Source: a virus
Lineage: Duplodnaviria > Heunggongvirae > Uroviricota > Caudoviricetes
Reading direction: 5' to 3' (one strand)
Virus record (IMG/VR): IMGVR_UViG_2660238507_000002
Coordinates: 1 to 29,676 of that record
Length of the DNA: 29,676 nt
This document shows, piece after piece, positions 1-21,837 of the stretch; within the stretch, counting starts at the first letter, position 1; each line of letters starts with the position of its first letter. A program made the position numbers and the translations under genes. The notes beneath the pieces were generated by a model. That model worked only from the letters and a program-made list of their open reading frames with translations. It made no database searches and was not told where the DNA came from.

Positions 1-258
1 ATGCAAACCGTTATTTTTGGTCGTTCGGGTTGCCCTTACTGTGTGCGTGCAAAAGATCTGGCTGAGAAATTGAGCAATGAACGCGATGATTTTCAGTATC
101 AGTATGTAGATATTCGTGCGGAAGGGATCACTAAAGAAGATCTACAACAAAAGGCAGGTAAACCCGTAGAAACCGTGCCGCAGATTTTTGTCGATCAGCA
201 ACATATCGGCGGCTATACCGATTTTGCTGCATGGGTGAAAGAAAATCTGGACGCCTGA
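1..258 (+). CDS. grxA: glutaredoxin 1
   Basis: 85-aa ORF with CPYC dithiol active site (GCPYCVRAK); translation recognised as enterobacterial GrxA; stop TGA at 256-258. Confidence 0.93.
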   Translation: MQTVIFGRSGCPYCVRAKDLAEKLSNERDDFQYQYVDIRAEGITKEDLQQKAGKPVETVPQIFVDQQHIGGYTDFAAWVKENLDA

Positions 259-268
259 TCGTCTGACA

Positions 269-300
269 AGCCCTCGCGTTGAGGGCTTTACTGATTTTTT
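269..300. terminator. hairpin (AGCCCTC..GAGGGCT) followed by T-run, between convergent grxA and ybjM
   Basis: 7-bp GC-rich inverted repeat at 269-287 followed by ttactgatttttt. Confidence 0.5.
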
Positions 301-665
301 CTGTGCTGTGGTTTAAACAAACTACTGATAAATAAGAAACACAGTGCCCCCAGCGCACACCAGAACACCGCGCTTAGTAACCATGCCAGCTCTTGCCAGA
401 ATGAGCGCGTCGGTGAAAAAAACAGCCGCATAATGAGCATCGAACAGGGTGCCGCCAGCATTGCGCCAAACAGAGGTTTCAGGACTTCTCTACGCTGTGA
501 AAAGAAGCTGGCGACTGCTCCAGGAAGAATGAAAAATAGCAAGCCGATTTCAGGATGCCCGGCAGCCCGAAAAGCGCCTTTCATGTGCGTCGCCAGAAAA
601 AGGCACACCACAATGAAGAGGACAAAACAGCAGATTGCCCCCGCCCAACGTTGTTTATGTTTCAC
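288..665 (-). CDS. ybjM: small inner-membrane protein YbjM
   Basis: 125-aa ORF with several hydrophobic helices, convergent with grxA; position and sequence consistent with E. coli ybjM. Confidence 0.8.
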   Translation of the reverse strand: MKHKQRWAGAICCFVLFIVVCLFLATHMKGAFRAAGHPEIGLLFFILPGAVASFFSQRREVLKPLFGAMLAAPCSMLIMRLFFSPTRSFWQELAWLLSAVFWCALGALCFLFISSLFKPQHRKNQ

Positions 666-934
666 TCGTTCCTCCTGACACTGCGTCTATCGAACACATT
701 TTTCGCCAGTGTGGCGTTCAGTAAGATAAAGCCGCTTCGCATTCCATGCTAATATAGGCCAACGCAATTCATATAGCCGTTGATACCTAATGTGATTACA
801 CTAGTAAAATATATTGTTACTTTACTATCGTTTAGGTGCGCTGAATGAATCTGCGCCCTGAATTCTGGTAAAAAACATTATCGTAAATTACCATTTCTTT
901 CAACAGCTTACTAGTAAACAAGAAGTTAGCCTCC

Positions 935-2620
935 GTGAATATAAACGTCGCCGAATTGTTAAATGGGAATTACATTCTGTTATTATTTGTGGTCCTCGCG
1001 CTTGGGCTATGTCTCGGAAAGTTACGACTTGGTTCGATCCAACTGGGTAATTCCATTGGCGTTTTAGTCGTATCGCTGTTATTAGGCCAACAACATTTCA
1101 GCATTAACACCGATGCGCTTAATCTTGGCTTTATGCTGTTTATTTTCTGCGTCGGGGTCGAAGCCGGACCGAACTTTTTTTCCATTTTTTTTCGCGATGG
1201 GAAAAATTACCTAATGTTAGCACTGGTGATGGTTGGCAGTGCGCTGGTGATCGCCTTAGGGTTAGGTAAGCTGTTTGGCTGGGATATTGGCCTGACGGCC
1301 GGTATGTTAGCAGGCTCTATGACGTCGACACCGGTTCTGGTCGGTGCTGGCGATACACTGCGTCATTCCGGCATGGAAAGCAGGCAGCTCTCACTGGCAC
1401 TGGATAATCTGAGCCTCGGGTATGCCTTAACCTATTTAATCGGTCTGGTGAGTTTGATTGTTGGTGCGCGTTACTTGCCGAAATTGCAGCATCAGGACTT
1501 ACAGACCAGCGCCCAGCAAATCGCCCGCGAACGTGGCCTGGACACTGATGCCAACCGTAAGGTTTATTTACCGGTGATCCGCGCCTATCGCGTCGGCCCG
1601 GAACTGGTGGCCTGGACCGACGGCAAAAATCTGCGTGAACTGGGTATTTATCGACAAACCGGCTGCTACATTGAACGTATTCGACGTAACGGGATTCTGG
1701 CAAATCCAGACGGTGATGCCGTGCTACAAATGGGCGATGAAATAGCGTTGGTAGGCTATCCCGACGCCCATGCCCGACTCGATCCCAGCTTCCGTAACGG
1801 TAAAGAAGTTTTCGATCGTGACCTTCTCGACATGCGTATCGTCACTGAAGAAGTGGTCGTTAAAAACCATAACGCTGTAGGTAAACGTCTCGCACAACTG
1901 AAGTTGACCGATCACGGTTGCTTCCTTAACCGCGTCATTCGTAGCCAGATTGAGATGCCGATAGATGACAACGTCGTGCTTAACAAAGGTGACGTTTTAC
2001 AAGTCAGCGGCGATGCCCGCCGCGTAAAAACCATCGCCGATCGCATCGGCTTTATCTCGATTCACAGCCAGGTCACTGACCTGCTGGCATTCTGCGCCTT
2101 CTTTGTTATTGGGCTGATGATCGGGATGATCACCTTCCAGTTCAGCACATTCAGTTTCGGCATGGGGAACGCTGCCGGGTTGTTATTCGCCGGAATTATG
2201 CTGGGCTTTATGCGTGCTAACCACCCGACCTTCGGTTACATTCCGCAAGGTGCATTAAGCATGGTGAAAGAGTTCGGCTTGATGGTGTTTATGGCAGGCG
2301 TTGGTCTGAGCGCCGGTAGCGGTATTAATAACGGCCTGGGCGCGATTGGCGGTCAGATGTTGATTGCCGGATTAATTGTCAGTCTTGTGCCCGTGGTTAT
2401 CTGTTTCTTGTTCGGTGCTTATGTATTGCGAATGAACCGCGCACTGTTGTTCGGCGCAATGATGGGCGCACGCACCTGCGCGCCGGCAATGGAGATCATC
2501 AGTGATACAGCTCGCAGTAACATCCCTGCGCTGGGCTATGCGGGCACCTACGCAATCGCCAACGTCCTGCTGACGCTGGCAGGGACAATCATCGTCATGG
2601 TATGGCCAGGATTAGGATAA
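935..2620 (+). CDS. ybjL: putative AAE-family transporter YbjL
   Basis: 561-aa ORF with GTG start, two hydrophobic membrane domains flanking a soluble central region; translation recognised as YbjL. Confidence 0.9.
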
Positions 2621-2732
2621 AACTGAAGTTGCCCTGAAAATGAAATTTTTTTGCACAACCGCAGAACTTTTCCGCAGGGCATCAGTCTTAATTAGTGCCA
2701 CTGCTTTTCTTTGATGTCCCCATTTTGTGGAG

Positions 2733-2775
2733 CCCATCAACCCCGCCATTTCGGTTCAAGGTTGATGGGTTTTTT
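2733..2775 (+). terminator. rho-independent terminator downstream of ybjL
   Basis: 10-bp perfect inverted repeat CCCATCAACC / GGTTGATGGG (2733-2742, 2760-2769) followed by TTTTTT. Confidence 0.6.
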
Positions 2776-2855
2776 GTTGCCTGAAATTTATGCCTTTTAA
2801 AATCATGTTATTAGAAGCACTGTTTTTTAACGATGGCGACAAAATGGCGGCAGCG

Positions 2856-3074
2856 TCAAAGAGAGAGCGCCACCTGTCCTGATTTCATTGGATGCGGCTG
2901 AACCGGATTTGACTCTTTTGGCGTTGCAATCGAACGAACAAAAGTTTCATGGGTAACAAAAGTATGGCTGCAGTTAATGTTCTGGCACTGGTTGTAACGC
3001 TCTTTGGTCAATGAAGATACCTGAAAACTGCTGCGAGTATGGGCGGCACTTCCACACAGTGGGCAAATCATCAT
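2856..3074 (-). CDS. ogr: late gene transcriptional activator, Ogr/Delta/B family zinc finger
   Basis: 72-aa ORF with CPLC...C...C zinc-finger spacing and TKERYxQCQNxNC motif typical of P2 Ogr / 186 B; GGGGGAG RBS upstream. Confidence 0.9.
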   Translation of the reverse strand: MMICPLCGSAAHTRSSFQVSSLTKERYNQCQNINCSHTFVTHETFVRSIATPKESNPVQPHPMKSGQVALSL

Positions 3075-3165
3075 TTTTCGAGTTCTCCCCCATTTTTGCT
3101 AAATTCACAATAATGATACCGCATTATTCCATTTTGCAAACTTAAAAGTTCTCCATTGCGAAGAA

Positions 3166-4266
3166 TCATTCCATTTCGAAATCATCAATCCTCACTTCAA
3201 GCTCCAGACTGGTCGTAAAACCGTTATCCGGGCTGACGGTATGTGTCAGAGTCGTAATGGTCCATTCCGCATCATCTATCGGCTGTTTAAAACCACTGAC
3301 CTTCACAGGCATTTCCGTGTAGAGATCTGCCCGCCCTTCTGCCAGTTGTAGCGAAAATGACGCAACGCCGCGTTGCAGGCGTTCCCACTGCATTTTCGCC
3401 GCTCGTTCGGCGTTGCTCCGGTTGACATAAGTGCGATTAAGTACCAGCACGTTTTCATCCGTACCCACCAGGTAATCGCCCTGCTTCGCTTCCGGCTCTT
3501 TCTTCTGCTTCTTAGTCCTGCGCTTACGCTTCACCGTAGTGCTTTCTTTCTTCGCGGGTTCGCGGGTATGCAACCAGCTGGCAATTACGCCCGTATAGGC
3601 TCCGCGATCTGCCAGGGTAAAGCGGTGACTGTCGCCGTCCTTACGTGTGATAGTGATCACCGGCAGTGGTTTACCGCTGGCACTTTTACCCTGTCCCTGC
3701 CGGATGAATAACAGATTGCCATTTTTCACTGACGCAATAGCACCGTACTGGCGCGCCAGCCGCATCAGAAAACTGCCGTCACTCTCATTAGTCTGGTCTA
3801 TATGTTCCACGGGCTTATCCGACAGGTCTTTACCCAGTGCCATCTTCAGCTTGTGACGCGCAGCTATTTCCTTCACCACTTCCCCAACGGTGGTCTTGTG
3901 CCACGACTTTTCACGGCGGGTATTCAGCGTTTCCCGAAAATCAGCACTTCGCGCCCGGATAGTCAGGCGGTCCGGTGCGCCAGTGTGTTCAATCTCGTCC
4001 ACCGTGAATGCCCCTTTCGGGAAAAGCGGCTGCCCCTTCCAGCCCAGCGCCAGCGTAATGACCGCACCACGGCGCGGCAGCGCTATTTTTCCATCGGCGT
4101 CGTCCAGCTCCAGATCAAGCTGGTCCGCTTCAAAGCCCCGGTTATCCGTCAGCGTCAGCCTCATCAGGCGGTTATCCAGCACAGTGGTGATATCCCTGCC
4201 CTCAATACTGATGCTGAATGCGGGAGTTTTGTTGCCTTTGTTAAGCAGTTCAGAGCTGAAATTCAC
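3166..4266 (-). CDS. D: tail protein D (late control gene D)
   Basis: 366-aa ORF immediately upstream of ogr and overlapping U stop/start; position and composition match P2 gpD. Confidence 0.8.
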   Translation of the reverse strand: MNFSSELLNKGNKTPAFSISIEGRDITTVLDNRLMRLTLTDNRGFEADQLDLELDDADGKIALPRRGAVITLALGWKGQPLFPKGAFTVDEIEHTGAPDRLTIRARSADFRETLNTRREKSWHKTTVGEVVKEIAARHKLKMALGKDLSDKPVEHIDQTNESDGSFLMRLARQYGAIASVKNGNLLFIRQGQGKSASGKPLPVITITRKDGDSHRFTLADRGAYTGVIASWLHTREPAKKESTTVKRKRRTKKQKKEPEAKQGDYLVGTDENVLVLNRTYVNRSNAERAAKMQWERLQRGVASFSLQLAEGRADLYTEMPVKVSGFKQPIDDAEWTITTLTHTVSPDNGFTTSLELEVRIDDFEME

Positions 4267-4748
4267 GACAGCAGCCCTCCCACCGTTTTACTGATATCAC
4301 TTAAGGCAGATGTTGCCGTGTCCTGCAGATTATTCAGTTGCGTACTGAGATCACCGAACATATCGGACAGGGATTCATCCACCCGTTTGAGCGACAGGGT
4401 GAACTCAATCCGGCGCGGCATACCGTCGCGGAAAAACTCCGTTTTAGTCAGATTCAGTCCCTCAATCACATACATGCCGTAAATCGTGCCGCTGCCTTCA
4501 ATCAGGGGCCATGCTTTTCCCTGTTCTGCCATCTGCTCCAGAGCCAGCAACGACAGCCTGCCGCCCGTTATCTCCGGCATAAGAACACCAGAAAGCGTCA
4601 GCATATCGTTGTCCGGTCCCAGAAACTGCGTGGATGGACGACGGTTTACCCGGCTGTTTGCCGCATGTCGCCAGCTGCGTTGATACTGCAGTTCCTGATA
4701 CGGAACGGTGCGCAGCATAAACACGTACAATCCCAGCACCATCATCAT
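4263..4748 (-). CDS. U: tail protein U
   Basis: 161-aa ORF between T and D, size and position as P2 gpU; start overlaps T stop. Confidence 0.8.
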   Translation of the reverse strand: MMMVLGLYVFMLRTVPYQELQYQRSWRHAANSRVNRRPSTQFLGPDNDMLTLSGVLMPEITGGRLSLLALEQMAEQGKAWPLIEGSGTIYGMYVIEGLNLTKTEFFRDGMPRRIEFTLSLKRVDESLSDMFGDLSTQLNNLQDTATSALSDISKTVGGLLS

Positions 4749-5308
4749 GCGTCGTATCCCCCCTGATCGCTGTAGTTACTCCTGGCTTTTGCCTTCAGCC
4801 TGCGTTCACGTTCATCAAGCTGGCGTGCCACCTCCCGCGCAATATCCTGCGCACTTTGTCCTGGCTGCGTCTGAATGATGATCTGCGTCGGTGCCTCAAT
4901 CCGGTGAACGGGCGGCACAGTGGCTGCACGACTCACCATCGCTTCGCCGCCTTTCGCGGGAAGTGCCAAAGGATGCAACGGTGGAAGCTCTGCAGGCGCG
5001 GCAGCAACGCCCATCATTCCGGCAACAACGGCAGCCAGTGCAGCTGTATTTCTCCGGCTGGTCACATTTGCCGGGCCGTTAACAATTTCCGGCCCGTTTT
5101 CACCGACGATGCCAAACTGCCCGCGCGGGATATAGCCGCCGCTGTCATACATCCCCGCAAAGCCATATCCCCATGATGGAAAACCACCCGATGGCATCAT
5201 CACTTTAGCTGGCGCTCCACTGGCACTGCTGCGACGCGGGCTTGCTTCATCGGGCAACGCAGCGGGTTTACTTACTGCGCCGTTGTCGTCTTTGCGCCGC
5301 ACGGCATC
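4745..5308 (-). pseudogene. T: tail tape measure protein, C-terminal segment
   Basis: Minus-strand frame encodes tape-measure C-terminus (..SGGYIPRGQFGIVGENGPEIVNGPANVTSRR..IIIQTQPGQSAQDIAREVARQLDERERR..); upstream of about 5310 this frame stops looking like protein. Confidence 0.7.
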
Positions 5309-5980
5309 ACTGACGGGGAATGTCCTGAAAACTGTAGCAGGTGTGCCGGTTGCACTGTTGCGGTCTGGATTATCCGGTTTACGTGCTGTTGCTGTGATGT
5401 TTATGAATCCACTGGCAGCACTACGCGGTGGACTGGCTGCCGCAGGCGCGGTGCTGCGAGTACTGGCATCCGGTCCGCTGGCGATGCTGCGCGTTGCCCT
5501 GTATGCCATATCTGGTCTGTTAGGTGCTCTGCTCAGTCCGATAGGTCTTGTGGTTACTGCACTGGCGGGCGTGGCGCTGGTTGTCTGGAAATACTGGCAA
5601 CCCATCACCGCATTTCTCGCTGGTGTGGTGGAAGGATTCAAAGCGGCGGCAGGTCCCATCAGTGCTGCATTCGAACCACTTAAGCCTGTGTTTCAGTGGA
5701 TTGGCGACAAAGTGCAGGCGTTGTGGGGTTGGTTTACTGATCTGCTGACGCCTGTTAAATCGACCTCTGCCGAACTGCAGAGCGCAGCGGCAATGGGGCG
5801 ACGATTCGGGGAGGCTCTGGCGGAGGGGCTGAATATGGTCATGCATCCGCTGGACTCCCTGAAATCCGGTGTTTCCTGGTTGCTGGATAAACTCGGCATT
5901 GTCAGTAAAGAAGCTGCAAAGGCGAAACTGCCGGAAAGCGTGACGCGTCAGCAACCTGCGACGGTGAATGCAGACGGTAA
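5283..5980 (+). pseudogene. T: tape-measure-like coding segment on the opposite strand (apparent internal inversion of T)
   Basis: Plus-strand frame gives protein-like, tape-measure-like sequence (..LVVTALAGVALVVWKYWQPITAFLAGVVEGFKAAAGPISAAFEPLKPVFQWIGDKVQALWGWFTDLLTPVKSTSAELQSAAAMGRRFGEALAEGL..) while no minus-strand frame here is both open and protein-like; boundaries approximate. Confidence 0.55.
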
Positions 5981-7822
5981 CCAGGACAACGCGCTGCTGG
6001 TTCGTGTTACTACTGCCGTAACGGAAGGTAACGTTTTGATACCCAGCACAGAGAATCCCAGACGGATGACTGCCAGCGGCCCCAGCACTGCAGCCAGCGC
6101 CACCGCTAAGGTGCCGAGGCCTAGGGTAACCGCAGCCACAACAGCCGCTACTTTCATCAGTGTGCCTGTCAGTTCCGGGTTAGCTTCCACCCAGCGGCGC
6201 AACGCCCCCGTGATGCTTTTCACCGTGTACAGAATATCCATCAGCGGCTGGCGCAGCGTTTCGCCCAGGCTGCTGAAGGTATTCTGTGCAGTGGTTTTGA
6301 CCAGCAACCACTGCGCAGAAAGTGAATCCTTGTTAATGTCGGATTCTTTCTGCATGGAGCCGAGCGCATCATTGCCCGCTGTCAGTTTTAGCTGGCGCTG
6401 TAGTTCCGGCAGGTTGTTTGCCAGTTTCGCCGCGTCATCGCCAAACTCTTTACCAAACAACATAGTCATGGCAGACAGACGCTTGTCCTGCGGCAGTGCG
6501 TTCACCTTCTCCAGCACACGCTGGATAGTTCCCATCGCATCCTTCGTCATCTGCTTTTCAATCACTTCAGGATTGAGTTTCAGCAGATTCATCCCTTCAA
6601 AGAAACTCTTGCTCTGCATGGTGGCAATGGACAATTCACGCACCATCGCGTTTGCTGCACTGGCTGCAACCTCCGGCGCAGCGCCCAGTGTCAGAAAGGT
6701 GGAACCCAGCGCCGCCGCTTTACGATAATCCAGACGGTCCGCCACACCGCCCAGACGTTGCATGACATCAATAATGTCTGCCCCTTTCGACATGGCGTTA
6801 TCATCCAGATAGTTCAGCGCATCACCTAGCTGTTCAATATTGCGGGTAGGGATTTTGTAGAGCTGGGCGATTTTCCCCAGACTTTCTGACAGTTCATCCG
6901 CTGGCAGCTCAAAGGCTGTTGCCGCCTTTGCTGCTGTGCTGGCGAAGGCCAGCAGATCACGTTTCTGGTCTTCCCAGCTGTCGTCAGGGTTTGCGACGTT
7001 CATGCGCGCACCACCTTCAACCAGTGCAGCGAAGTCCACAGCACCGTTTTCCATCGGCAACTGTTCGCTGGCAGCCTTGATGGCATCCTGCATTTCATAA
7101 AAACGTGCAGTGCGGTTGCCATTATCGTCACGCAGACCATTGACCTGCTTTGCCACACCTTTCATGGCATCTTCTATGCTGGTATAGCTTTTTACTGCCG
7201 CCATCACTGGCGTCCCCATTGCCAACCCTGCAGCCGTGGTAGTGGCTCCGGCTCCTGCAATACGATCGCGCACCTCCAGCGAACGGGCATAACTGGCACG
7301 CGCCGCATTCATCCTGCGCTGAGCTTCCCCCAGTCGCTTCAGCCGCGCCTCCTGTTTCGACAGTTCCTGGTTATAACGTGATGTTTCACGGGCTAAACGG
7401 GCAGTTGCTCCCGCATCATCTTTCGCAGAAATTCCCGCCCGGTACAGTTCTGCACGCACAAGCGCCGTTTGCTTCTGCAAATATTTTTGTTGTTCTTCCA
7501 GGCGTTGGACTGCCAGCGTTTGCCGACCTAAAGCCACAAGGTGCCGTTGTGATGGTTGTTCCATCGCTTCCAGCTCAGAACTAAGCAAATTTGCCTTCTG
7601 TCTGGCATAGTTCAGCCTGTCGCCTAACTTTTTGTTATCGGCCTGCAGCTTGCGAAATTTTTCCAGGCTGTTACCCGCCTGATTGAGTTGCTTTAATGCG
7701 TCACGGGAGTTTCTGATTGCGCCAGCCAGCTCTTTCGAACTGGCCTGTGCAGCACGGAATGGGCGGGTGAGTTTGTCAACCGCATTAAGAATGACCTGCA
7801 GGCGCAGGTTATTATCACTCAT
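5948..7822 (-). pseudogene. T: tail tape measure protein, N-terminal segment (624 codons, ends at in-frame stop)
   Basis: Long Ala/Leu/Gln/Arg-rich coiled-coil-like ORF starting MSDNNLRLQV, followed by hydrophobic stretch; start overlaps E' stop (ATGAGTGA). Confidence 0.75.
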
Positions 7823-7994
7823 CGTTGGCCCCGCTTCTCTGAATCGCTTTATACCGCCATTCCAGCACTTCGGTCAGCGGCATAACGTCAGTAACGGATG
7901 GCGGCCAGTGAAAAATGGTGGCGATATCTGCCACCAGATCGTCAACCGTCAGGCTGTCGGTAAACCGGCAAGCACCGACTTCTTCAACAAAAAA
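7815..7994 (-). CDS. E': E' extension produced by -1 programmed frameshift (E+E')
   Basis: TTTTTTG slippery heptamer on minus strand at 7988-7994 near the E 3' end; -1 frame stays open about 58 codons and terminates at TGA overlapping the T start codon. Confidence 0.6.
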   Translation of the reverse strand, partial: FFVEEVGACRFTDSLTVDDLVADIATIFHWPPSVTDVMPLTEVLEWRYKAIQRSGANDE

Positions 7995-8251
7995 GTGACA
8001 ACCTCAACCGACATGGCAGTGAGATCTGCCGGGTCCATCTCTGCAATTTCCTGTGCAGTCAGTGCCGGACTGGAAATGCGGGGGATCACGGTCATCATCG
8101 CGTTCACATCCATATCCATAATGGCCTGCAGGCGTGTACCGCGCAGCGCACCGGACTGCGGTTTACGCAACACAATTTCGGTAATTTCTGTTTTACCGCG
8201 CATGATGGGGGTATCCAGTTGAATGGTCTTTTCAGTCTGCTTATCGTTCAT
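7949..8251 (-). CDS. E: tail assembly chaperone E
   Basis: ORF directly upstream of T as in P2; ends with slippery heptamer. Confidence 0.75.
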   Translation of the reverse strand: MNDKQTEKTIQLDTPIMRGKTEITEIVLRKPQSGALRGTRLQAIMDMDVNAMMTVIPRISSPALTAQEIAEMDPADLTAMSVEVVTFLLKKSVLAGLPTA

Positions 8252-8305
8252 TTTGTTGTCCTGTAAATTGGGTTCTGGCGCGGTATCCCGCGCCGTTCAG
8301 ATAGA

Positions 8306-8821
8306 TCAGAGGCCGAGGGCGTTGCGGTGCGCTTCCATCAGGTCCACACCGTCCACAATTTCCACCATGTTGATAAGGTCCACTTCATAGAGCACCTCAC
8401 CATTGATGGTCAGCTTCGCGTAGCTGTTGGTACTGGTCACTTTGGTGGTGTTGCTTTCGCCCGTCTTCCACTCGCCGGAATCCACTTCTTTGTGACGTCC
8501 ACGCACCACAAGCTCCACGGCCTGCACTTCTCCGGTATCGTCACGCTGGATAGAGCCGGTAAAGCGCAACTGGATGCCATCCACCGTGGCTTTGCCCATC
8601 TGCTTAAACAGCAGCAGTTCAGTACCACCAATGGAAAATTCTGTGTCCAGAGCACTGTCATCCAGTCCCAGATCCACATCCACTGCACCCGGCATTCCGC
8701 CGCCGCGATACTTCTCATATTTGCGGGTGAATTTCGGCAGCGTCAGCGACTCAACGATCCCCTGCCAGTTGTTCCCGTCGTTAAACAGGTTCAGGTGTTT
8801 TAATTTGCGTGGTAAAGCCAT
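8306..8821 (-). CDS. FII: tail tube protein FII
   Basis: 171-aa ORF, size/position and sequence as P2 gpFII. Confidence 0.85.
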   Translation of the reverse strand: MALPRKLKHLNLFNDGNNWQGIVESLTLPKFTRKYEKYRGGGMPGAVDVDLGLDDSALDTEFSIGGTELLLFKQMGKATVDGIQLRFTGSIQRDDTGEVQAVELVVRGRHKEVDSGEWKTGESNTTKVTSTNSYAKLTINGEVLYEVDLINMVEIVDGVDLMEAHRNALGL

Positions 8822-8830
8822 GTTGTCCCC

Positions 8831-9427
8831 TTACGCGCTGACCTGGCTGGAGAAATTCACCAGGTACTGATCGGTGATGCGCTGACGCAGCATCAGGTTT
8901 TCAAGTGGCGGCACTGGTGTGTAGTCGTAGTCGATGGTGAGTTTTCCAGCTTTCAGAGTGTCTTTGTCGTTCACCGACTCATCCAGCCAGCAATCGCCAC
9001 CAATGAGATAGCCCTGACTGATCAGGCTGCGCATTTTGGCGCGGATACCTTCGATAATGTCGCGGGCCAGCGACGGATTCAGCGGTTTATCGACCGCCCA
9101 CATTGGCGCTTCTGCCATCGTGTCCATCAGCACCTGCGCCGTGCGGGTGTAGTTTTCGAAGGCAAAGAGTGGGTCATCACTCAGGCAGCGGGAACCCCAG
9201 AAGCGGAAACCGTCTTTACGCACAAGCGTGGTGACGTCGTTCTGGTTCAGCAGACCTGCATCAGTTGCCGGGTCCTGCAGATCCCAGAACACATCAGCAG
9301 AAATTCCGGTGACACCGTTCACGCCCACGTTGGACAGGCTTTTGTGCCACCCTGTCTGCTCATCAATTTTGGCACGCAGACCAAGCGCACGGGCGGTGGC
9401 ATATGCCGTTGCGTCGGCATTCAGCAC
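8831..9427 (-). pseudogene. FI: tail sheath protein FI, C-terminal half only
   Basis: 198-codon frame where a ~396-aa sheath gene is expected; ends ..[18 protein letters not shown] like P2 FI C-terminus. Confidence 0.7.
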
Positions 9428-9669
9428 CGTGTCCCAGCCAGTACAGCCTTCACTGCCTTCGGTGTTGCGGCCAGTATTTCGGATTCACTGTTGGTCGCAC
9501 TGCTTAACTGAGTAAAACCTTTTGCGGTCAGCGAGGCGTCCGGGTGACGTCGTGACTGTTCGTGCTCTGATATTTTGTCATCCACATACTTGCGAGTTGC
9601 CAGTACTACAGCAGGGTCGATTTTCAGGGTGATATTGTCCGTGCTGCTGGTAATCAACACCATACGCAC
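9421..9669 (-). pseudogene. H: tail fibre protein H, short internal fragment
   Basis: 82-codon frame containing [49 protein letters not shown], the conserved N-proximal tail-fibre repeat of P2 H and relatives. Confidence 0.7.
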
Positions 9670-9917
9670 GGTCTGGGTAACGCAAAGGCGGTTTCCAGAT
9701 TGCCGCCCAGACTCAGCAGCACCACCTGCTCACCTTCCGATGGTCGCCACCATGTCCGGGCATTCCCGGCACGCAGGGTCAGCCAGCTGATCCAGTTGGT
9801 TTCTAAGTCGCCTGTTTTCACCCGGCAAAGCCAGTTTTCCCGGTCCACTTCGGTGACTACCCCAGTGCGGATCAGGTTGGTGATAAGGCGCATGATTTCG
9901 GTTAATTGTGCGTTCAT
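9654..9917 (-). pseudogene. V: baseplate spike protein V, N-terminal fragment
   Basis: 87-codon frame matching gpV N-terminus (..IRTGVVTEVD..CRVKTGDLETNWISWLTLRAGNARTWWRPSEGEQV..), then frame change and stop. Confidence 0.7.
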
Positions 9918-9963
9918 AGGGAAAGGTTGCCATCAGGGGAAGAAAGGCGGCAGTGCTGCAACT

Positions 9964-9981
9964 TGTATCAGTGCTGATACA
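9964..9981. promoter_or_regulatory. Ogr/B activator binding site (TGT-N12-ACA) of the V-operon late promoter
   Basis: TGTATCAGTGCTGATACA, a perfect-dyad TGT-N12-ACA element between S and V. Confidence 0.6.
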
Positions 9982-9985
9982 AAAA

Positions 9986-10432
9986 TCACCCCGCCAACCA
10001 TTGCAGAATCATGTCGCGGGTCATTGCCTCAACATCATCATTTACGCCCAGAAGGCGACGCTCTGCGTAACGGACCTCCGGTCCTTTGCGGCTGACGCGA
10101 TCACGCAGGCCATAATGGTGGACGCGGGCAATGCGCTGCACCTTACCTTCAAACTGCACGCTGGCAGAGTCCTCGCTGGCGGCGGTTTTCAGGTATTTTG
10201 TGGTGCGAAGTTTTGTAAACATCTGCCGTTTGATACGGCCTTTTTTACTGCGTGCTGTTACTCGCCTCGGTTCATAGCTGCTGCCATCAGGATTGCGTTG
10301 CATCCTGATGTTCTGCTGCTGTGTCCGGCGCAGTTCCTGCGCCAGCTGGCGCATCATGCGGCTTCTGGCGGCTGGTTCCAGATTCGCCAGCAAGGCACTC
10401 AGCCAGTCGTCCACCTTCTGCAGTTCAGCCAC
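9986..10432 (-). CDS. S: tail completion protein S
   Basis: 148-aa ORF following R, start overlaps R stop; matches P2 gpS size and position. Confidence 0.8.
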   Translation of the reverse strand: MAELQKVDDWLSALLANLEPAARSRMMRQLAQELRRTQQQNIRMQRNPDGSSYEPRRVTARSKKGRIKRQMFTKLRTTKYLKTAASEDSASVQFEGKVQRIARVHHYGLRDRVSRKGPEVRYAERRLLGVNDDVEAMTRDMILQWLAG

Positions 10433-10877
10433 GTTTCACCGTCCACATTTCTTCAGGTGCATCAGGTTCCGCTATAGCTTCAACGCTCGACACACTACCG
10501 TCAGTGCTGACCAGCACACGCTCCGTCAGTTGCAGGTTCAGGCTGATATCACAGACATCGTTGCGCAGAATATCCACCTCAAAGGTGAATAGTTTTTCCC
10601 GTAACGCCGGGTTATTGATGGCATCGGGCTGGTTATCCCTCAGCCACAGCAAAACCGGGGCCATCAGCAGATTCTGGTCGCCGCTGAAATCCTCAATCAC
10701 CGCGTTCAGGGTGTAACGGTACTCCCACGACATGGAGTTGGCCCCCGTGGCAACCAGCGAACCGTTATCCACAAACAGATGCAGTTTGTCCGGGTTATTG
10801 CGGACATAAGGCACCGCTTTATTGAGGGCGTGGCGCAGGGATTGTGGTTTGTTCACTGTTTCGCTCCTGACACGCAA
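10425..10877 (-). CDS. R: tail completion protein R
   Basis: 150-aa ORF after the lysis cassette, as in P2. Confidence 0.8.
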   Translation of the reverse strand: MRVRSETVNKPQSLRHALNKAVPYVRNNPDKLHLFVDNGSLVATGANSMSWEYRYTLNAVIEDFSGDQNLLMAPVLLWLRDNQPDAINNPALREKLFTFEVDILRNDVCDISLNLQLTERVLVSTDGSVSSVEAIAEPDAPEEMWTVKRG

Positions 10878-11109
10878 TAATCATGTCCACTTTGTCTGCA
10901 CAGACCGCCCAGGCGGCCTCCGTTTCATCCAGCAACGCATTCAGATCACCGTTAGTGCGCGGTGCTGCCTGCTCCAGCCGACACGGCGTCACTCGCGGAC
11001 AACCACTGACGGTAAGCTGCACCTCCGGTGAGTGCCGGACGTTCCCGCAGCCGGATAATGTCAGCAGGCAAAGGAGTATCAGCCCAGTGGCGTAAATCCT
11101 CGTTCTCAC
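10819..11109 (-). CDS. lysC: Rz1-like outer-membrane lipoprotein spanin (LysC)
   Basis: 96-aa ORF in alternate frame overlapping lysB 3' end; signal peptide with lipobox LSGC; Pro-rich. Confidence 0.7.
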   Translation of the reverse strand: MRTRIYATGLILLCLLTLSGCGNVRHSPEVQLTVSGCPRVTPCRLEQAAPRTNGDLNALLDETEAAWAVCADKVDMIIACQERNSEQTTIPAPRPQ

Positions 11110-11380
11110 GTTTCAGTTCCTCGATCCGGCGTTGTCGTTGTCTCAGCTGTGCGCTGGTCTGTTCTGCTTCGGCATAGAGCCGCGCCTGCTCCCGGTTATT
11201 GGTTTCAGTCAGAATGGACAGGCTGATAAGCTGGCTGTTGCTCTTTGCCAGTGCCTGGCTTTTGCTCTGCAGCTCGTTTGCCTGCGTGCTGATGGTCTGG
11301 CTGGCATCAGCCAGCCGCCACGTCTGCCAGCCCAGCGCCGCCAGTAATAACGCCAGCACAACCAGCAGCAACCGGTTCAT
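10952..11380 (-). CDS. lysB: Rz-like inner-membrane spanin (LysB)
   Basis: 142-aa ORF with N-terminal TM helix then coiled-coil (Gln/Arg/Glu-rich). Confidence 0.8.
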   Translation of the reverse strand: MNRLLLVVLALLLAALGWQTWRLADASQTISTQANELQSKSQALAKSNSQLISLSILTETNNREQARLYAEAEQTSAQLRQRQRRIEELKRENEDLRHWADTPLPADIIRLRERPALTGGAAYRQWLSASDAVSAGAGSTAH

Positions 11381-11754
11381 GCTGCTACCTGTTGCGCCAT
11401 CTGATTACGGGTGATCCAGAAGGCAATAACGGTCAGCAGATAAAAGACCAGGGTAATAGCCCACCCCGTCCATGCGAGACTTACAACAATCAGCAATCGC
11501 ATCACCCAACAGATAAATACATTTTCTTTTCGGGTAATTGTCTTCAGCAAAGATGCCCTTAACTCCTGCCAGAGCGGGCCATTCTGAATTAACGCAGCCA
11601 GTGCTACCGGAATTACCGCCCATGTCAGCAAACAGGCTACCCAAACGCCGGACGCTGCCAGTACCGGAAAGATCCCCTGCGGATACACCATTGCTGCGAT
11701 TAACAGCGCCATCCATAACATCAGAAACAGTCCGCTGATTAATTTCTTTTTCAT
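11377..11754 (-). CDS. lysA: lysis regulatory membrane protein LysA
   Basis: Multi-TM small ORF between endolysin and lysB; ATG at 11754 (MKKKLISG...) chosen over upstream alternative start at 11826. Confidence 0.65.
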   Translation of the reverse strand: MKKKLISGLFLMLWMALLIAAMVYPQGIFPVLAASGVWVACLLTWAVIPVALAALIQNGPLWQELRASLLKTITRKENVFICWVMRLLIVVSLAWTGWAITLVFYLLTVIAFWITRNQMAQQVAA

Positions 11755-11755
11755 T

Positions 11756-12268
11756 TCAGTTTGCTCCCTGTAAACACCAGGCCATCTCCCGCGCACGGCG
11801 GTTATCCAGCCCCTGATTAAACACACCTTTTACATAAACCCAGCGCGGCAACTGTCGGCACGCATCCGCCCAGCGCCGCTGATTGAGCAATTTCACCAGC
11901 GTGGAACTACAGGCATTGCCCGTCCCCACGTTGAAGGCAAACGACACCGTAGCGTCATACACCTTCTGTGGTGGCTGTTGCTTCACACACCTTTCCAGTG
12001 CCCGCTCCACACGCAGCACGTTGGAGATCAGCCCTTCTGCTGCCTGTCGTTCCGTGATTGTTTTGCCGGGAATGACGCCCGATGTATTACCAATGCCGTC
12101 GGTCCAGACACCCGCGCTGCACTGATACGGCTGCAGACGACAGCCTTCGTAATCGGCAATCAGTTTCAGCCCCTCCACGGAGGTGTGAAGCTGCTGAAAA
12201 CCCGGCAGCGTGGCAGCAATAGCCAGCACGGCCCCGACAAGGCAGCGTTTAACGATTGATGGATTCAT
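11756..12268 (-). CDS. K: endolysin (lysozyme family)
   Basis: 170-aa ORF with N-terminal signal-anchor-like segment and lysozyme-like core (..LKLIADYEGCRLQPYQCSAGVWTDGIGNT..). Confidence 0.85.
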   Translation of the reverse strand: MNPSIVKRCLVGAVLAIAATLPGFQQLHTSVEGLKLIADYEGCRLQPYQCSAGVWTDGIGNTSGVIPGKTITERQAAEGLISNVLRVERALERCVKQQPPQKVYDATVSFAFNVGTGNACSSTLVKLLNQRRWADACRQLPRWVYVKGVFNQGLDNRRAREMAWCLQGAN

Positions 12269-12464
12269 AGTCCTCCCGCGAGATCTGCCCGTCGCGCAGA
12301 AGCTGGTAGGCTTTGTGTTTGTAGTACCAGTTGATAGCCAGCATCAGCACACCAATCATCAGGCCGCCCAGCGTTGAGGCATCCTTGATGGACAAATCGC
12401 CCAGCCAGGCCAGCACGACGGCGATGCAATACGTGATAAAGGCGCTGATTCGCTCAAGCGTCAT
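12249..12464 (-). CDS. putative holin
   Basis: 71-aa ORF with two hydrophobic helices and charged C-terminus immediately upstream of endolysin. Confidence 0.6.
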   Translation of the reverse strand: MTLERISAFITYCIAVVLAWLGDLSIKDASTLGGLMIGVLMLAINWYYKHKAYQLLRDGQISREDYESINR

Positions 12465-12467
12465 AAT

Positions 12468-12671
12468 TCAGTCCCATAGCTGGACGGTCTGCACGGTGGT
12501 GGTGGTCGGTATGTCCGGCAGCTCCACCTGCAGCCCGTGAGGTAAAAAGGGGCCGTATTCGGCAAGCCCCGGATTTGCCTTCAGTACCTGCTCCGTGACA
12601 CCCTGCGTGCGCCCGTAATGACGCCAGCAAAGCGCGTCCACCGTGTCATACTGATACGCACGCACTTTCAT
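12468..12671 (-). CDS. X: tail protein X
   Basis: 67-aa ORF with LysM-like sequence (..YGRTQGVTEQVLKANPGLAEYGPFLPHGLQVELPD..) as P2 gpX. Confidence 0.85.
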   Translation of the reverse strand: MKVRAYQYDTVDALCWRHYGRTQGVTEQVLKANPGLAEYGPFLPHGLQVELPDIPTTTTVQTVQLWD

Positions 12672-13198
12672 CAGATAAGCTCCACTGTGCAGTGCGGCGC
12701 ATCCTGCACCCGGCTGATGGCCCAGCGGGCGTCACGCCACAAATCACCGCTGGCTTCCGCCAGTTCTTCGCCTCGCTTCACACCGGATGCCGTGGCGTCA
12801 TAGTCCTGGTATCGTTCGTTGAGCATGGCGCGTGCCCAGCAGTAAACCGCGTTGAAATAGTGCTGAATGCGCTCACTTTTCCCGTCCAGCTGTTCCGCCG
12901 GAACCTCTGCCAGCGAGGCATACCCCAGCATCTGCTGGCGTCTGCGAAACTCATACAGCTCTGCGTTGACCTCCGAAATTGCCGACAGGGCAACCTGCTT
13001 TAAACGCGGCTGCGTCACCGTGCCGTCAGTGCGCATGACACTGCGAAACTCCGACAGGTCCACATCAGGCCAGAACGGCGTATTTCTGATGATTTCCGCC
13101 TGTTCCGGTGCCTGTTCTGGCGCAACAAACTTCATGCTGCTTTCTCCTGAAATAGAGGGCGGTGGACGGGGTTTTGATGAGGCTGTGCCTTTCGCCAC
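12671..13198 (-). CDS. L: head completion/stabilisation protein L
   Basis: ORF between M and X as in P2; true start may be the internal ATG (MKFVAPEQ...). Confidence 0.7.
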   Translation of the reverse strand: MAKGTASSKPRPPPSISGESSMKFVAPEQAPEQAEIIRNTPFWPDVDLSEFRSVMRTDGTVTQPRLKQVALSAISEVNAELYEFRRRQQMLGYASLAEVPAEQLDGKSERIQHYFNAVYCWARAMLNERYQDYDATASGVKRGEELAEASGDLWRDARWAISRVQDAPHCTVELI

Positions 13199-13230
13199 CC
13201 CGTGCCGCCCGTGCGCGGGGGCACGTTCTG

Positions 13231-13881
13231 TCAGCGGCTGTCATTGCGCAGTCTGCGCTCCAGCTGCTGTTTGTCTTTTTTCACGCCACAGCGGGGATCG
13301 AGCTGTAACGCATGGTTGAGATGATTAAGGGCGGACGCCGGATTGCTTTCACTCAGGACAACGCCAATCGCTTTATGCAGACGCGCCCGTGACTGGTCCG
13401 GCATATCCAGACCGTCTGTCAGCTCCAGCGTCTGCAGCAACAGATCAGCATCAAAGCCGGTGGCGGCAAGCATTGCGCTCTGCGCGGCGTCTGCCATTTC
13501 CTCTGCCAGCACGGTCTGCACGTTGCGGTTACCCAGCGGCATCACCCAGCCATGACGCAGGGCATGACGCCCGATCTCCAGCGCTCCGGCATAATCTCCG
13601 GCATCAATGCGCCACAGCATCACGTACATCAGCACGTCATCCTGTTGAGCGCCTCCGGCAGCCAGGACACCCTCTGCCCAGGCGGCGTACTTCGGCAGCA
13701 GCTCCACCTTGATTTCCGCTTTTTTGACCGTGGACTGAACGCCCTTGAGACGGCGGCGGTCTTCCGCCAGTTGCAGCAGCATCAGGTCATAGCCCGATGC
13801 GTGGCGAACACTGCCGCCCTCGCGGGCGGCCTGTTCAGCCTGAACGCGCAGGCGATGCTGCCGTGCGGGACTCAGGCTCAT
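13231..13881 (-). CDS. M: terminase endonuclease (small) subunit M
   Basis: 216-aa ORF, sequence resembles P2 gpM (..RHASGYDLMLLQLAEDRRRLKG..VLMYVMLWRIDAGDYAGALEIGRHAL..). Confidence 0.8.
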   Translation of the reverse strand: MSLSPARQHRLRVQAEQAAREGGSVRHASGYDLMLLQLAEDRRRLKGVQSTVKKAEIKVELLPKYAAWAEGVLAAGGAQQDDVLMYVMLWRIDAGDYAGALEIGRHALRHGWVMPLGNRNVQTVLAEEMADAAQSAMLAATGFDADLLLQTLELTDGLDMPDQSRARLHKAIGVVLSESNPASALNHLNHALQLDPRCGVKKDKQQLERRLRNDSR

Positions 13882-13884
13882 GGA

Positions 13885-14244
13885 TTACGCTCCTGTTTCG
13901 GCTGCGGCGGCGCTGAAATCACCAATCTGGATGTTTTCCACCAGTGCGGCGCAGCGGTAGTCCTCAACCACATAGGCTTCGTTAACGGATTCAAAGTTTT
14001 CAATCCGGTCACGTTTCGGGTTGTCGATAACTGAACGGCGGCGGGTGTCTTCCTGCCAGTAGATGGACAGGTTATCCAGACGGGTGATCAGCAGCGCATT
14101 CGGCGGGAAGATCTGGTCTTCCAGCGTCTGCTGCACAGACGGCTCCACGGTGAACTTGCTGGACAGTTCTTCAACTGCCACACCGTTCAGACGCGCCAGC
14201 TGCTGCAGGTAAGCGTTAAAAGCAAAGCGGGTATTCTTCTTCAT
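13885..14244 (-). pseudogene. N: major capsid protein N with large in-frame internal deletion
   Basis: Only 119 codons between O and M where a ~357-aa gene is expected; retains gpN-like N-terminus (TRFAFNAYL..KFTVEPSVQQTL) joined to gpN-like C-terminus (LITRLDNLSIYW..NPKRDRIENFESVNEAYVVEDY..GDFS). Confidence 0.75.
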
Positions 14245-14260
14245 CAGGTTTTGTGCTCCA

Positions 14261-15094
14261 TCAGCAATTGGTCAGAGTGTCAGCGGGGGCGTTACCGCCT
14301 GTTGCACGCTGGCGGTAGTCCTGGCGGCTGTCTTCATGGCTCAGCTTGTCCACCAGTTCGTCAAAGGCGGTCAGCTGTGCCTGCAGGGCTGTCTCCAGCT
14401 CAGACAAGCGTTCTTCCTGTTCAGACAGGGATTTTTCGGTGCGCGCACTCAGGTTTTGCTGCTCAGTGGCGACCAGCTCCACGGCCTTATGCACATCAGA
14501 GAACCGGGCATCGTCTGACTGCTCTTTTTTGGTGAACAGCGCCGTGACGCGGGCAAACAGGGACGGTTTGTCGTCCTGGACTTCCTCCAGTTCGATCACC
14601 GTTTCTTCTGCAGCGGTAAAGAGATTGGCAGGATTCTGCTTGCGGTTTGCCAGCGGGTTATGGGCTGCACTGGCGCTGAATGTCAGCATTTCAGTGCCCA
14701 GACTGGCAGGGTCATCAGTGGCAGCCAGGCCGACCAGGTAGGCTTTGCCCGTATCAGCGAACTTCGGGCTGACTTCCATAGAGGTGAATAATTTCTGGCC
14801 TTTTTTCACCAGTTCCACCAGGGACTCCGTTGGCTCAACGTCGGCATACAGCGCCATCTTGCCTGCCAGCGGACCTTCCTTGATTTCTTCAGCAAACAGC
14901 GCCGTCACCTTGCCGTAGCGGTTAAAGGTGCTGTCCGGCAGATAAGACTTGATGTGCTCAAGGTTAATCAGCGCGGTATACACCGCCGGGTTGTAGCTGG
15001 CTGCCATCTGTTCCAGCCATTCACGCTGGATTTCGCGTCCGTCGGTGGTGGCACCTTCCACCCCGATGCGAAAACGCTTTGCTTTCACTGTCAT
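14261..15094 (-). CDS. O: capsid scaffold protein O
   Basis: 277-aa acidic coiled-coil-rich ORF, first gene of leftward late operon. Confidence 0.8.
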   Translation of the reverse strand: MTVKAKRFRIGVEGATTDGREIQREWLEQMAASYNPAVYTALINLEHIKSYLPDSTFNRYGKVTALFAEEIKEGPLAGKMALYADVEPTESLVELVKKGQKLFTSMEVSPKFADTGKAYLVGLAATDDPASLGTEMLTFSASAAHNPLANRKQNPANLFTAAEETVIELEEVQDDKPSLFARVTALFTKKEQSDDARFSDVHKAVELVATEQQNLSARTEKSLSEQEERLSELETALQAQLTAFDELVDKLSHEDSRQDYRQRATGGNAPADTLTNC

Positions 15095-15172
15095 GAGCCG
15101 TGCTCCGTTAGAAAAAACTTACTGGAGCCTTATGGTTGCGGTGATAGGGGCAGTGAAACAATGCGCGGTATT

Positions 15173-15190
15173 TGTACCGACAATCACACA
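15173..15190. promoter_or_regulatory. Ogr/B activator binding site (TGT-N12-ACA) in divergent P/O late-promoter region
   Basis: TGTACCGACAATCACACA in the 142-bp intergenic region between O and P. Confidence 0.5.
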
Positions 15191-15236
15191 AACCGCAGGC
15201 GGGGAAAGCCTTCATTCAAGGCTGTAGGTTTGTGCC

Positions 15237-17003
15237 ATGAACACCACACTGACACCCGCAGATCTCGATCCCCGTCGGCAGGCCATGCTGCTGTACTTTC
15301 AGGGATACCGCGTCGCCCGCATTGCTGAAATGCTGGGCGAGAAAGTTGCAACCGTTCACAGCTGGAAAAAACGCGACAAGTGGGGTGACTATGGGCCGCT
15401 GGATCAGATGCAGCTCACCACCGCCGCACGCTACTGCCAGCTCATTATGAAGGAGCACAAAGAAGGGAAAGATTTCAAAGAGATTGACCTGCTGGCGCGC
15501 CAGTCGGAACGCCACGCGCGGATCGGCAAGTTTAACAATGGCGGCAACGAAGCCGACTTAAACCCTAACGTCGCCAACCGTAACAAAGGCCCGCGCCGTC
15601 AGCCGGAAAAGAATGTTTTCACCGATGAACAGATTGAGAAGCTGGAAGAAATCTTTCATTCCTCCATGTTCAACTACCAGCGCCACTGGTGGGAAGCCGG
15701 AAAAACCAACCGCATCCGCAACCTGCTGAAGTCACGCCAGATCGGCGCGACCTTCTATTTTGCCCGTGAAGCCCTGATTGACGCCCTGCTGACCGGACGT
15801 AACCAGATTTTCCTTTCCGCCAGTAAGGCACAGGCCCACGTCTTTAAGCAGTACATCATCGACTTCGCCAAAGAAGTGGATGTGGAACTGAAAGGCGATC
15901 CGATGGTGCTTCCTAACGGGGCCACGCTTTACTTCCTCGGCACCAATGCCCGCACGGCCCAGAGTTATCACGGCAACCTGTATCTGGATGAATATTTCTG
16001 GATACCGAAATTTCAGGAGCTACGCAAAGTGGCTTCCGGTATGGCTATTCACAAGAAATGGCGGCAGACCTATTTTTCCACACCATCCAGCCTGACCCAC
16101 AGTGCTTATCCGTTCTGGTCCGGTGCGCTGTTCAACCGCGGACGCAACAAAGCCGACAAGGTGGACATCGACCTGTCCCACAACAATCTGGCCCCCGGCC
16201 TGCTGTGCGCTGACGGGCAATACCGCCAGATAGTCACCGTCGAAGATGCGGTGCGCGGCGGCTGTAACCTGTTCGACCTTGACCAGTTGCGCATGGAATA
16301 CAGCCCGGACGAATACCAGAACCTGCTGATGTGCGAGTTTGTGGACGATCTCGCGTCCGTGTTCCCGCTCAGCGAACTACAGGCGTGCATGGTGGACAGC
16401 TGGGAAGTCTGGACCGACTTTCATGCACTGGCGCTGCGCCCGTTTGGCTGGCGCGAAGTGTGGATCGGTTATGACCCGGCAAAAGGTACGCAGAACGGCG
16501 ACAGCGCCGGATGCGTAGTGGTGGCACCGCCAGCCGTGCCGGGCGGTAAGTTCCGCATTCTTGAGCGTCACCAGTGGCGCGGGATGGACTTCCGCGCCCA
16601 GGCTGACGCCATCAAAAAACTGACTGAACAGTACAACGTGACATACATCGGTATCGACTCAACCGGCGTCGGTCACGGGGTTTACGAGAACGTGAAAGCG
16701 TTTTTTCCTGCCGTCCGGGAGTTTGTCTACAACCCCAACGTTAAAAATGCCCTGGTACTCAAGGCCTACGACATTATCAGTCACCGCCGTCTGGAGTTTG
16801 ACGCCGGACACACCGACATAGCGCAGTCATTTATGGCAATCCGTCGCGCCACCACCGCCAGCGGCAACCGCCCGACCTATGAAGCCAGCCGCAGCGAAGA
16901 AGCCAGCCATGCCGATCTGGCGTGGGCAACAATGCACGCACTGTTTAACGAACCGCTGCAGGGCGAGTCCGCCAATACCAGCAATATTGTGGAGATTTTT
17001 TGA
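15237..17003 (+). CDS. P: terminase ATPase (large) subunit P
   Basis: 588-aa ORF; translation resembles P2 gpP. Confidence 0.85.
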   Translation: MNTTLTPADLDPRRQAMLLYFQGYRVARIAEMLGEKVATVHSWKKRDKWGDYGPLDQMQLTTAARYCQLIMKEHKEGKDFKEIDLLARQSERHARIGKFNNGGNEADLNPNVANRNKGPRRQPEKNVFTDEQIEKLEEIFHSSMFNYQRHWWEAGKTNRIRNLLKSRQIGATFYFAREALIDALLTGRNQIFLSASKAQAHVFKQYIIDFAKEVDVELKGDPMVLPNGATLYFLGTNARTAQSYHGNLYLDEYFWIPKFQELRKVASGMAIHKKWRQTYFSTPSSLTHSAYPFWSGALFNRGRNKADKVDIDLSHNNLAPGLLCADGQYRQIVTVEDAVRGGCNLFDLDQLRMEYSPDEYQNLLMCEFVDDLASVFPLSELQACMVDSWEVWTDFHALALRPFGWREVWIGYDPAKGTQNGDSAGCVVVAPPAVPGGKFRILERHQWRGMDFRAQADAIKKLTEQYNVTYIGIDSTGVGHGVYENVKAFFPAVREFVYNPNVKNALVLKAYDIISHRRLEFDAGHTDIAQSFMAIRRATTASGNRPTYEASRSEEASHADLAWATMHALFNEPLQGESANTSNIVEIF

Positions 17004-18028
17004 TGGGAAAGAGTAAGAAGAACCGCGCTGTGTCGACGAACCAGATTCAGCATAAAAGCCAGACTTCAGCCGAAGCATTCAGCTTTGGCGATCCCGTTCC
17101 TGTTCTGGACCGCCGCGAACTGCTGGACTATGTGGAATGCGTACAGACAGATCGCTGGTATGAGCCGCCAGTGAGTTTTGACGGACTGGCGCGAACCTTC
17201 CGCGCTGCCGTGCATCACAGTTCACCAATTGCGGTGAAATGCAACATTCTGACCAGTACCTACATCCCTCACCCGCTTCTCAGCCAGCAGGCTTTTTCAC
17301 GTTTTGTGCAGGACTATCTGGTATTTGGTAACGCATACCTGGAGAAACGCACGAACCGGTTCGGTGAAGTTATCGCCCTTGAGCCTGCTCTGGCAAAATA
17401 CACCCGACGTGGGTTAGACCTGGATACCTACTGGTTTGTGCAATACGGCATGACAACCCAGCCGTATCAGTTCACGAAAGGCAGCATCTTTCATCTGATG
17501 GAACCCGATATCAACCAGGAGATCTACGGCCTGCCCGGTTATCTTTCTGCCATTCCGTCAGCCCTGCTCAACGAGTCCGCCACGCTGTTCCGACGCAAAT
17601 ATTATATTAATGGCAGCCATGCAGGATTCATAATGTACATGACCGATGCCGCTCAGAACCAGGAGGATGTGAACAACCTCCGCAACGCGATGAAAAGCGC
17701 CAAAGGGCCAGGCAACTTCCGCAACCTGTTTATGTACTCGCCTAACGGCAAAAAAGACGGGCTTCAGATCATCCCATTGTCAGAAGTCGCGGCGAAAGAT
17801 GAGTTTTTGAATATCAAAAATGTTAGTCGCGATGACATGATGGCGGCACACCGCGTGCCGCCGCAGATGATGGGGATTATGCCTAATAATGTTGGGGGAT
17901 TTGGGGATGTGGAGAAGGCAAGCAAAGTGTTTGTGCGGAATGAGTTAATGCCATTGCAAAAGAATTTTGAATCACTGAATAACTGGGCTGGAAAAGAAAT
18001 TATTTCATTTAATGACTACTGTTTTTAA
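17000..18028 (+). CDS. Q: portal (capsid vertex) protein Q
   Basis: 342-aa ORF overlapping P stop, as P2 gpQ. Confidence 0.85.
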   Translation: MMGKSKKNRAVSTNQIQHKSQTSAEAFSFGDPVPVLDRRELLDYVECVQTDRWYEPPVSFDGLARTFRAAVHHSSPIAVKCNILTSTYIPHPLLSQQAFSRFVQDYLVFGNAYLEKRTNRFGEVIALEPALAKYTRRGLDLDTYWFVQYGMTTQPYQFTKGSIFHLMEPDINQEIYGLPGYLSAIPSALLNESATLFRRKYYINGSHAGFIMYMTDAAQNQEDVNNLRNAMKSAKGPGNFRNLFMYSPNGKKDGLQIIPLSEVAAKDEFLNIKNVSRDDMMAAHRVPPQMMGIMPNNVGGFGDVEKASKVFVRNELMPLQKNFESLNNWAGKEIISFNDYCF

Positions 18029-18033
18029 GAAAA

Positions 18034-18057
18034 TGCGCATGGAAATTTTCATGCGCA
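18034..18057. terminator. palindromic hairpin between convergent Q and reverse transcriptase genes
   Basis: TGCGCATGGAAA / TTTTCATGCGCA near-perfect palindrome; on the minus strand it is followed by ATTTTCTT. Confidence 0.5.
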
Positions 18058-18063
18058 CACACG

Positions 18064-18993: not shown

Positions 18994-18994
18994 A

Positions 18995-20047: not shown

Positions 20048-20110
20048 ATTGAATGTACTTTCCTGCTAAGGGCACAGCTAGGCTAGCACTAACATACGGA
20101 TTATTCAAGT
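19915..20110 (-). ncRNA. candidate retron msr-msd non-coding RNA (extent approximate)
   Basis: Position immediately upstream of effector-RT operon; contains very stable hairpin at 19941-19993 as expected for an msd stem; a1/a2 repeats and branching G not identified. Confidence 0.3.
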
Positions 20111-20129
20111 GAATGCAGCTCAGCGCGCG

Positions 20130-20148
20130 CTCGTATCCCCGCCACGCC
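20130..20148. other. candidate cos site (cohesive-end sequence)
   Basis: Minus-strand GGCGTGGCGGGGATACGAG resembles the P2 19-nt cohesive end GGCGAGGCGGGGAAAGCAC as I recall it (about 14/19 identical); GC-rich island between two AT-rich inserts. Confidence 0.3.
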
Positions 20149-20193
20149 TGCCCGCTTTATGTAGTAGTTTTCATGCAGGTGCATGATCTACGC

Positions 20194-20217: not shown

Positions 20218-20265
20218 CTTAGCAAAAACGATCCTCAAACGATCATGCGATCTCATGCAGCATAG

Positions 20266-21827: not shown

Positions 21828-21837
21828 AAAAGTCCCC

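Follow-up and report, generated by a model that had tools for sequence, protein, structure and literature searches.

In the 29,676-nt stretch of DNA analyzed here (the window), the gene for the phage tail tape measure protein (TMP) lies on the minus strand on both sides of a segment that codes on the plus strand. Is this segment a programmed switch, an error of assembly, or the scar of a rearrangement? A preliminary description had left all three causes open; rearrangement is the one that stood, while assembly error proved unlikely and programmed inversion found no support. We conclude that the window very probably carries a real, fixed, and nonprogrammed 770-bp inversion in the TMP gene, which arose by illegitimate recombination in a decaying, defective P2-like prophage of Escherichia coli isolate 50822286.

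The affected gene (P2 gpT-like; 4745..7822, minus strand, as are the late genes) corresponds in relatives to a single open reading frame (ORF) of 3078 nt or 1025 aa. On one side of it are the gpE/E' chaperone genes and on the other gpU/gpD, and its total length and position are colinear with the annotated "phage tail tape measure protein" of E. coli MS14386 and of Klebsiella phage 4LV2017. Its 624-aa N-terminal fragment matched the Pfam family PF10145 (PhageMin_Tail) with E = 8e-19. The three blocks into which the gene is divided showed 100% DNA identity to the intact TMP gene of MS14386 (WP_129753539.1; same length and same gpE/E'-T-U-D synteny) and 95 to 97% per block to that of 4LV2017 (YP_009789858.1; Peduoviridae/Elveevirus), in which length and synteny are also the same. 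All examined relatives are uninterrupted, whereas in the window the central 770 bp are reverse-complemented and the ORF is in three pieces: instead of a continuous frame of approximately 1025 codons, the frame terminates at a stop behind codon 624, and residues 616-872 are encoded on the other strand. The TMP gene at 4745..7822 is a pseudogene. In the GenBank assembly, no CDS was called in the TMP region.

Alignment to the intact gene of MS14386 by BLAST mapped the breakpoints to 5205/5208 and 5977/5980. The flanks (1263-5207 and 5978-9446 against the intact gene; 1-5207 and 5978-9443 against the intact prophage) matched on one strand, while window positions 5205-5980 matched the opposite strand with 100% identity over 776 nt. 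When 5205-5980, 5206-5979, 5207-5978, or 5208-5977 was re-inverted, there were 0 mismatches to MS14386 over 5100-6100. The inverted block is thus 5208-5977 (770 bp) or, if the 3-nt TTA/TAA ambiguity is counted in, 5205-5980 (776 bp). Since both flanks share one coordinate offset relative to MS14386, no base was gained or lost in the inversion. Furthermore, the GC skew flips sign across approximately 5300-5900, from about -0.1 to about +0.15. The parts of the locus are the following:

5978..7822, minus strand: native N-terminal part of TMP, codons 1-615 (615 residues identical to the reference; PF10145)
5948..5977, minus strand: end of the 624-aa product, formed by nine nonsense codons (PSAFTVAGC) and a stop where the inverted block is read in antisense
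5948-7822, minus strand: truncated 624-aa ORF
5208..5977, plus strand: inverted block with TMP residues 616-872 (opposite-strand match of 100%, re-inversion, translation, and reversed GC skew)
5205..5207, no strand: microhomology TTA at the left junction, assignable to the flank or to the inverted block
5978..5980, no strand: microhomology TAA at the right junction, reverse complement of the left one and the sole inverted homology at the breakpoints
4745..5207, minus strand: native C-terminal part of TMP, last 153 codons and stop (read downward from 5206, the translation is identical to the C-terminal end of the reference TMP)
5283..6728, plus strand: spurious chimeric 481-aa ORF; its first approximately 231 codons are TMP residues 641-872, and beyond them the frame runs in antisense through the N-terminal part of TMP

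These results confirmed the preliminary description in its essentials. It had placed an internal TMP segment on the opposite strand, as borne out by the reversed middle block and by the mismatch-free re-inversion; it had given the minus-strand N-terminal part as 624 codons with a stop at 5948, and this ORF is present; and its right edge, 5980, was correct. The tape-measure character that it had ascribed to the plus strand is explained by residues 616-872, which are identical to the reference TMP. Several of its dimensions needed revision. The block measures 770 to 776 bp and not approximately 0.65 kb, and it encodes approximately 257 aa of TMP on the plus strand rather than approximately 220 aa. 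The left edge had been set at 5283, where the plus-strand ORF merely has its first TTG, and the actual edge is 5205/5208. Finally, the native C-terminal portion starts at 5207 and not at about 5310.

The C-terminal TMP codons run from 5206 down to 4748, followed by the stop at 4745-4747, and are severed from the start of the gene. The minus-strand ORF that ends at 4745 is TMP-like only near its C terminus: this 304-aa chimeric ORF (4745-5659; 286 aa in the Logan annotation) is partly TMP and partly antisense read-through. Both it and the 481-aa plus-strand ORF are by-products of the inversion. The exact 624-aa product is present in RefSeq as WP_244493338.1, under the name "phage tail tape measure protein." This entry ends in nine nonsense residues and is unsuitable for inferring TMP length or tail length.

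We then compared the arrangement with that of related sequences. By BLAST, a flipped arrangement colinear with that of the window was found in none of the E. coli complete-genome records (0/1,105) and in none of the phage records (0/46). All matching records stop at 78% of the window TMP gene and match its middle piece on the opposite strand, and only one orientation was seen among the relatives. The 30-mer across the left junction had no exact match in the species-representative genome, viral, and metagenome collections, and the one across the right junction had none in the species-representative genome collection; these scans detect exact matches, and diverged copies were covered by BLAST for the E. 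coli complete genomes and the phages. The two chimeric proteins that span the junctions were found on one indexed contig only.

The carrier of this contig is the clinical E. coli isolate 50822286 (ST410, Norway, 2014), in which the P2-like prophage (Peduoviridae) is integrated beside ybjL. The inversion is not the only private lesion of this prophage. Compared to MS14386, three deletions were detected in the structural genes:

9442..9443, no strand: deletion A, approximately 2.57 kb, removing the sheath N terminus, the tail-fibre assembly gene, and most of the tail fibre; 2-nt microhomology (TA)
9675..9683, no strand: deletion B, approximately 2.54 kb, removing the tail-fibre N terminus, gpI, gpJ, gpW, and part of gpV; 5-nt microhomology (GGGTA), imperfectly extended
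14110..14111, no strand: deletion C, approximately 0.70 kb, within the major capsid gene, of which a 119-aa fragment is left; 2-nt microhomology (GA)

Between deletions A and B, a tail-fibre island of 240 bp (9443-9683) is retained. Colinear E. coli records were not found at deletions A and B (0/2,167) or at deletion C (0/997). Apart from the deletions, the surrounding regions are 100% identical to MS14386, with no point substitution across approximately 8.9 kb. Together with the inversion, the deletions amount to four lesions in a late-region stretch of 14.7 kb. Because sheath, fibre, baseplate, and capsid sequence is deleted, the prophage cannot make virions, and therefore an intact TMP is not under selection. 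The prophage is defective whatever the state of its TMP gene.

A comparable case was found in a finished genome. E. coli OHT76-1 (NZ_CP135244.1) harbors, likewise at ybjL, a P2-like prophage that was independently deleted at multiple positions, which shows that such decay occurs naturally. As in the window, several lesions affect the late structural genes, while the ends, the regulators, and the lysis genes are kept. In contrast to the window, the OHT76-1 prophage has deletions only, with other breakpoints, whereas the window contains one exact inversion, a rarer outcome. The OHT76-1 deletions (approximately 8085-14035 of the examined locus) created fusions of tube to TMP C terminus, of sheath to gpV, and of tail X to scaffold.

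Is the inversion present in the chromosome? Two public assemblies contain it. The Logan contig SRR2724128_14 (69 kb) is 100% identical to the window and gap-free across all junctions. The NCBI contig LNIK01000019.1 (300 kb; GCA_001463645.1), which was found via the 119-aa capsid fragment, is also 100% identical and gap-free, and covers window positions 3885-24244 and 12180-29676. Both assemblies pass unbranched through the two inversion junctions, and deletion C is present in both. The 198-aa sheath fragment and the 87-aa V fragment matched the Logan contig only, these fragments being uncalled in GenBank. An artificial editing of the window was also considered and was rejected, the same structure being present in public assemblies.

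A sequencing-library or assembly artefact, in which chimeric fragments or a mis-join would have produced an inversion that is absent from the chromosome, would agree with the fact that a single isolate and read set carries the inversion, that no related record has it, and that it is suspiciously exact. Moreover, the two assemblies probably share their reads: they very probably derive from the same short reads of one isolate. However, these are separate contigs, identical to each other and unbranched at both junctions. An assembler that flips a segment needs many reads spanning the new joins, because the 3 nt that the junctions have in common are much shorter than any assembler k-mer; judging from how de Bruijn and overlap assemblers work, the reads containing the novel junctions should have been numerous. 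Word-sized repeats at the breakpoints, as would be expected for an artefact that is not reproduced elsewhere, were not found, and the two assemblies agree. In addition, an artefact would also have to account for the three deletions of this prophage, which show similar microhomology, and the OHT76-1 prophage shows comparable decay in a finished genome. We therefore consider an artefact improbable.

Phages use invertible segments in their tail-fibre genes. Intragenic invertons are known by which proteins are recoded or cut short (10.1101/2023.03.11.532203). A programmed, recombinase-mediated segment, either an intragenic inverton or one of the serine-invertase (Gin/Hin/Cin/Pin) type, could toggle TMP, and the exactness of the inversion would be in agreement with it. 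Indeed, the locus resembles intragenic invertons and the Gin/Cin/Hin segments of phages in having a reversed segment inside a coding region and a truncated protein. However, a programmed inversion requires a pair of inverted repeats recognized by a site-specific recombinase (10.1101/2023.03.11.532203). Using a seed-6 search and in-register comparison, we detected no inverted repeats at the breakpoints except for the 3 nt TTA/TAA, and the in-register match around the breakpoints was 25 to 35% over ±10 to 40 nt, and 25 to 28% once these 3 nt were left aside, which corresponds to the chance level; the earlier observation that clean flanking inverted repeats are lacking was thus confirmed. Neither a Pfam scan of the nonstructural ORFs in the window nor the annotated intact relative revealed an invertase, and the sole recombinase is a tyrosine integrase. 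None of the 1,151 related records is flipped, and the unbranched contigs would indicate that a single orientation was present in the sample. Finally, a usable alternative product was not found: the 770 nt are not a multiple of 3, the flipped state is off-frame and runs into a stop after nine nonsense codons, and nearby tail and capsid genes are deleted too. Unlike the known switches, the locus shows one orientation and neither evident reversibility nor a useful product. A programmed switch is not supported and was rejected as scarcely conceivable.

An inversion caused by a mobile element (an insertion sequence [IS] or transposon) or by the phage integrase at pseudo-att sites was also considered. 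Intramolecular transposition and recombinase events at pseudo-sites can yield exact inversions, and a tyrosine integrase is indeed present. However, neither junction contains an IS copy, inserted sequence, or target-site duplication, and the re-inverted sequence equals the reference without extra bases. The breakpoints matched the best candidate att core, an uncertain 14-nt direct repeat between the prophage ends, at 8 of 14 positions, compared to a null mean of 7.8. An origin by either of these routes is highly improbable.

The supported reading is a one-off rearrangement, and it is strengthened by the three private deletions. Homologies of 1 to 9 nt were present at the junctions of all four events (3 nt for the inversion; 2, 5, and 2 nt for the deletions), with no inserted or mobile DNA. 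The 3-nt microhomology of the inversion alone is marginally above chance (P ~0.056), and the four private events together have 12 nt of microhomology (3, 2, 5, and 2), with a P of ~5e-4 compared to a random-junction null. We propose that the inversion arose by a reciprocal break-and-rejoin at two sites sharing the inverted microhomology TTA/TAA. This would have split TMP into the 624-aa N-terminal fragment, the stranded residues 616-872 on the opposite strand, and the orphaned 153-codon C terminus. The inversion would be part of a burst of structural decay that includes the deletions.

With respect to the molecular route, we infer end-joining or a topoisomerase-type exchange. In E. coli, ligase A (LigA)-dependent alternative end-joining joins ends at microhomologies, according to the account of Chayot et al. 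(2010) given in PMC4872102. The deletions fit this pathway, and the window events resemble it, as described there, in their 2- to 5-nt microhomologies and in the lack of inserted DNA. However, alternative end-joining normally resects and loses sequence, whereas the inversion lost nothing at either junction. Perfect reciprocity with zero loss is unusual for double-strand ends exposed to RecBCD, and it would argue against both resection-dependent joining and simple template switching. The latter is awkward because a return to the exact adjacent base would be needed twice. A concerted reciprocal exchange of the topoisomerase or gyrase type may therefore be a better fit than classical alternative end-joining.

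The four lesions could have arisen in one catastrophic event confined to the prophage, by multi-break shattering and rejoining or by replication-based template switching (chromothripsis- or chromoanasynthesis-like), instead of by four independent mutations. Eight breakpoints in 14.7 kb, microhomologies of 2 to 5 nt at all of them, and zero point substitutions in approximately 8.9 kb compared to MS14386 are the basis for this suggestion, which we regard as possible but doubtful. The trigger of such an event was perhaps an abortive induction, or damage by a nuclease or a gyrase poison.

Regardless of its route, the inversion is an ordinary though tidy mutational scar in a single clinical isolate and is of small biological importance. 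It documents one more route of prophage gene inactivation. Four microhomology lesions without point changes are a modest curiosity with respect to the speed and route of prophage decay. That late genes decay recurrently through several lesions while regulators and lysis genes are kept may merit a systematic look.

Several other features of the window were noted. It starts with chromosomal DNA (grxA, ybjM, and ybjL). Its end, 29676, coincides exactly with the integrase gene boundary as called in the NCBI contig, and thus the window appears to be a portion trimmed at a gene boundary and not a whole contig. The immunity/integrase end (26315-28545) is mosaic compared to MS14386, with 89 to 95% identity, and encodes a 186-type CI repressor and Fil. 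Two genes of MS14386 are absent from the window, namely the DUF4041 gene and, downstream of int, a small hypothetical one; the difference at 29633-29635, which concerns the small gene, is a natural variant that is common, with colinearity in 1,088 records. The segment 18064-20047 (minus strand), which lies between the portal gene and the replication genes, encodes a reverse transcriptase of the retron type (309 aa, PF00078) and, next to it, an effector of 350 aa (PF28093, STM3845); their counterparts in MS14386 are annotated as "retron St85 family." This retron is apparently intact antiphage defence cargo in the P2 variable region.
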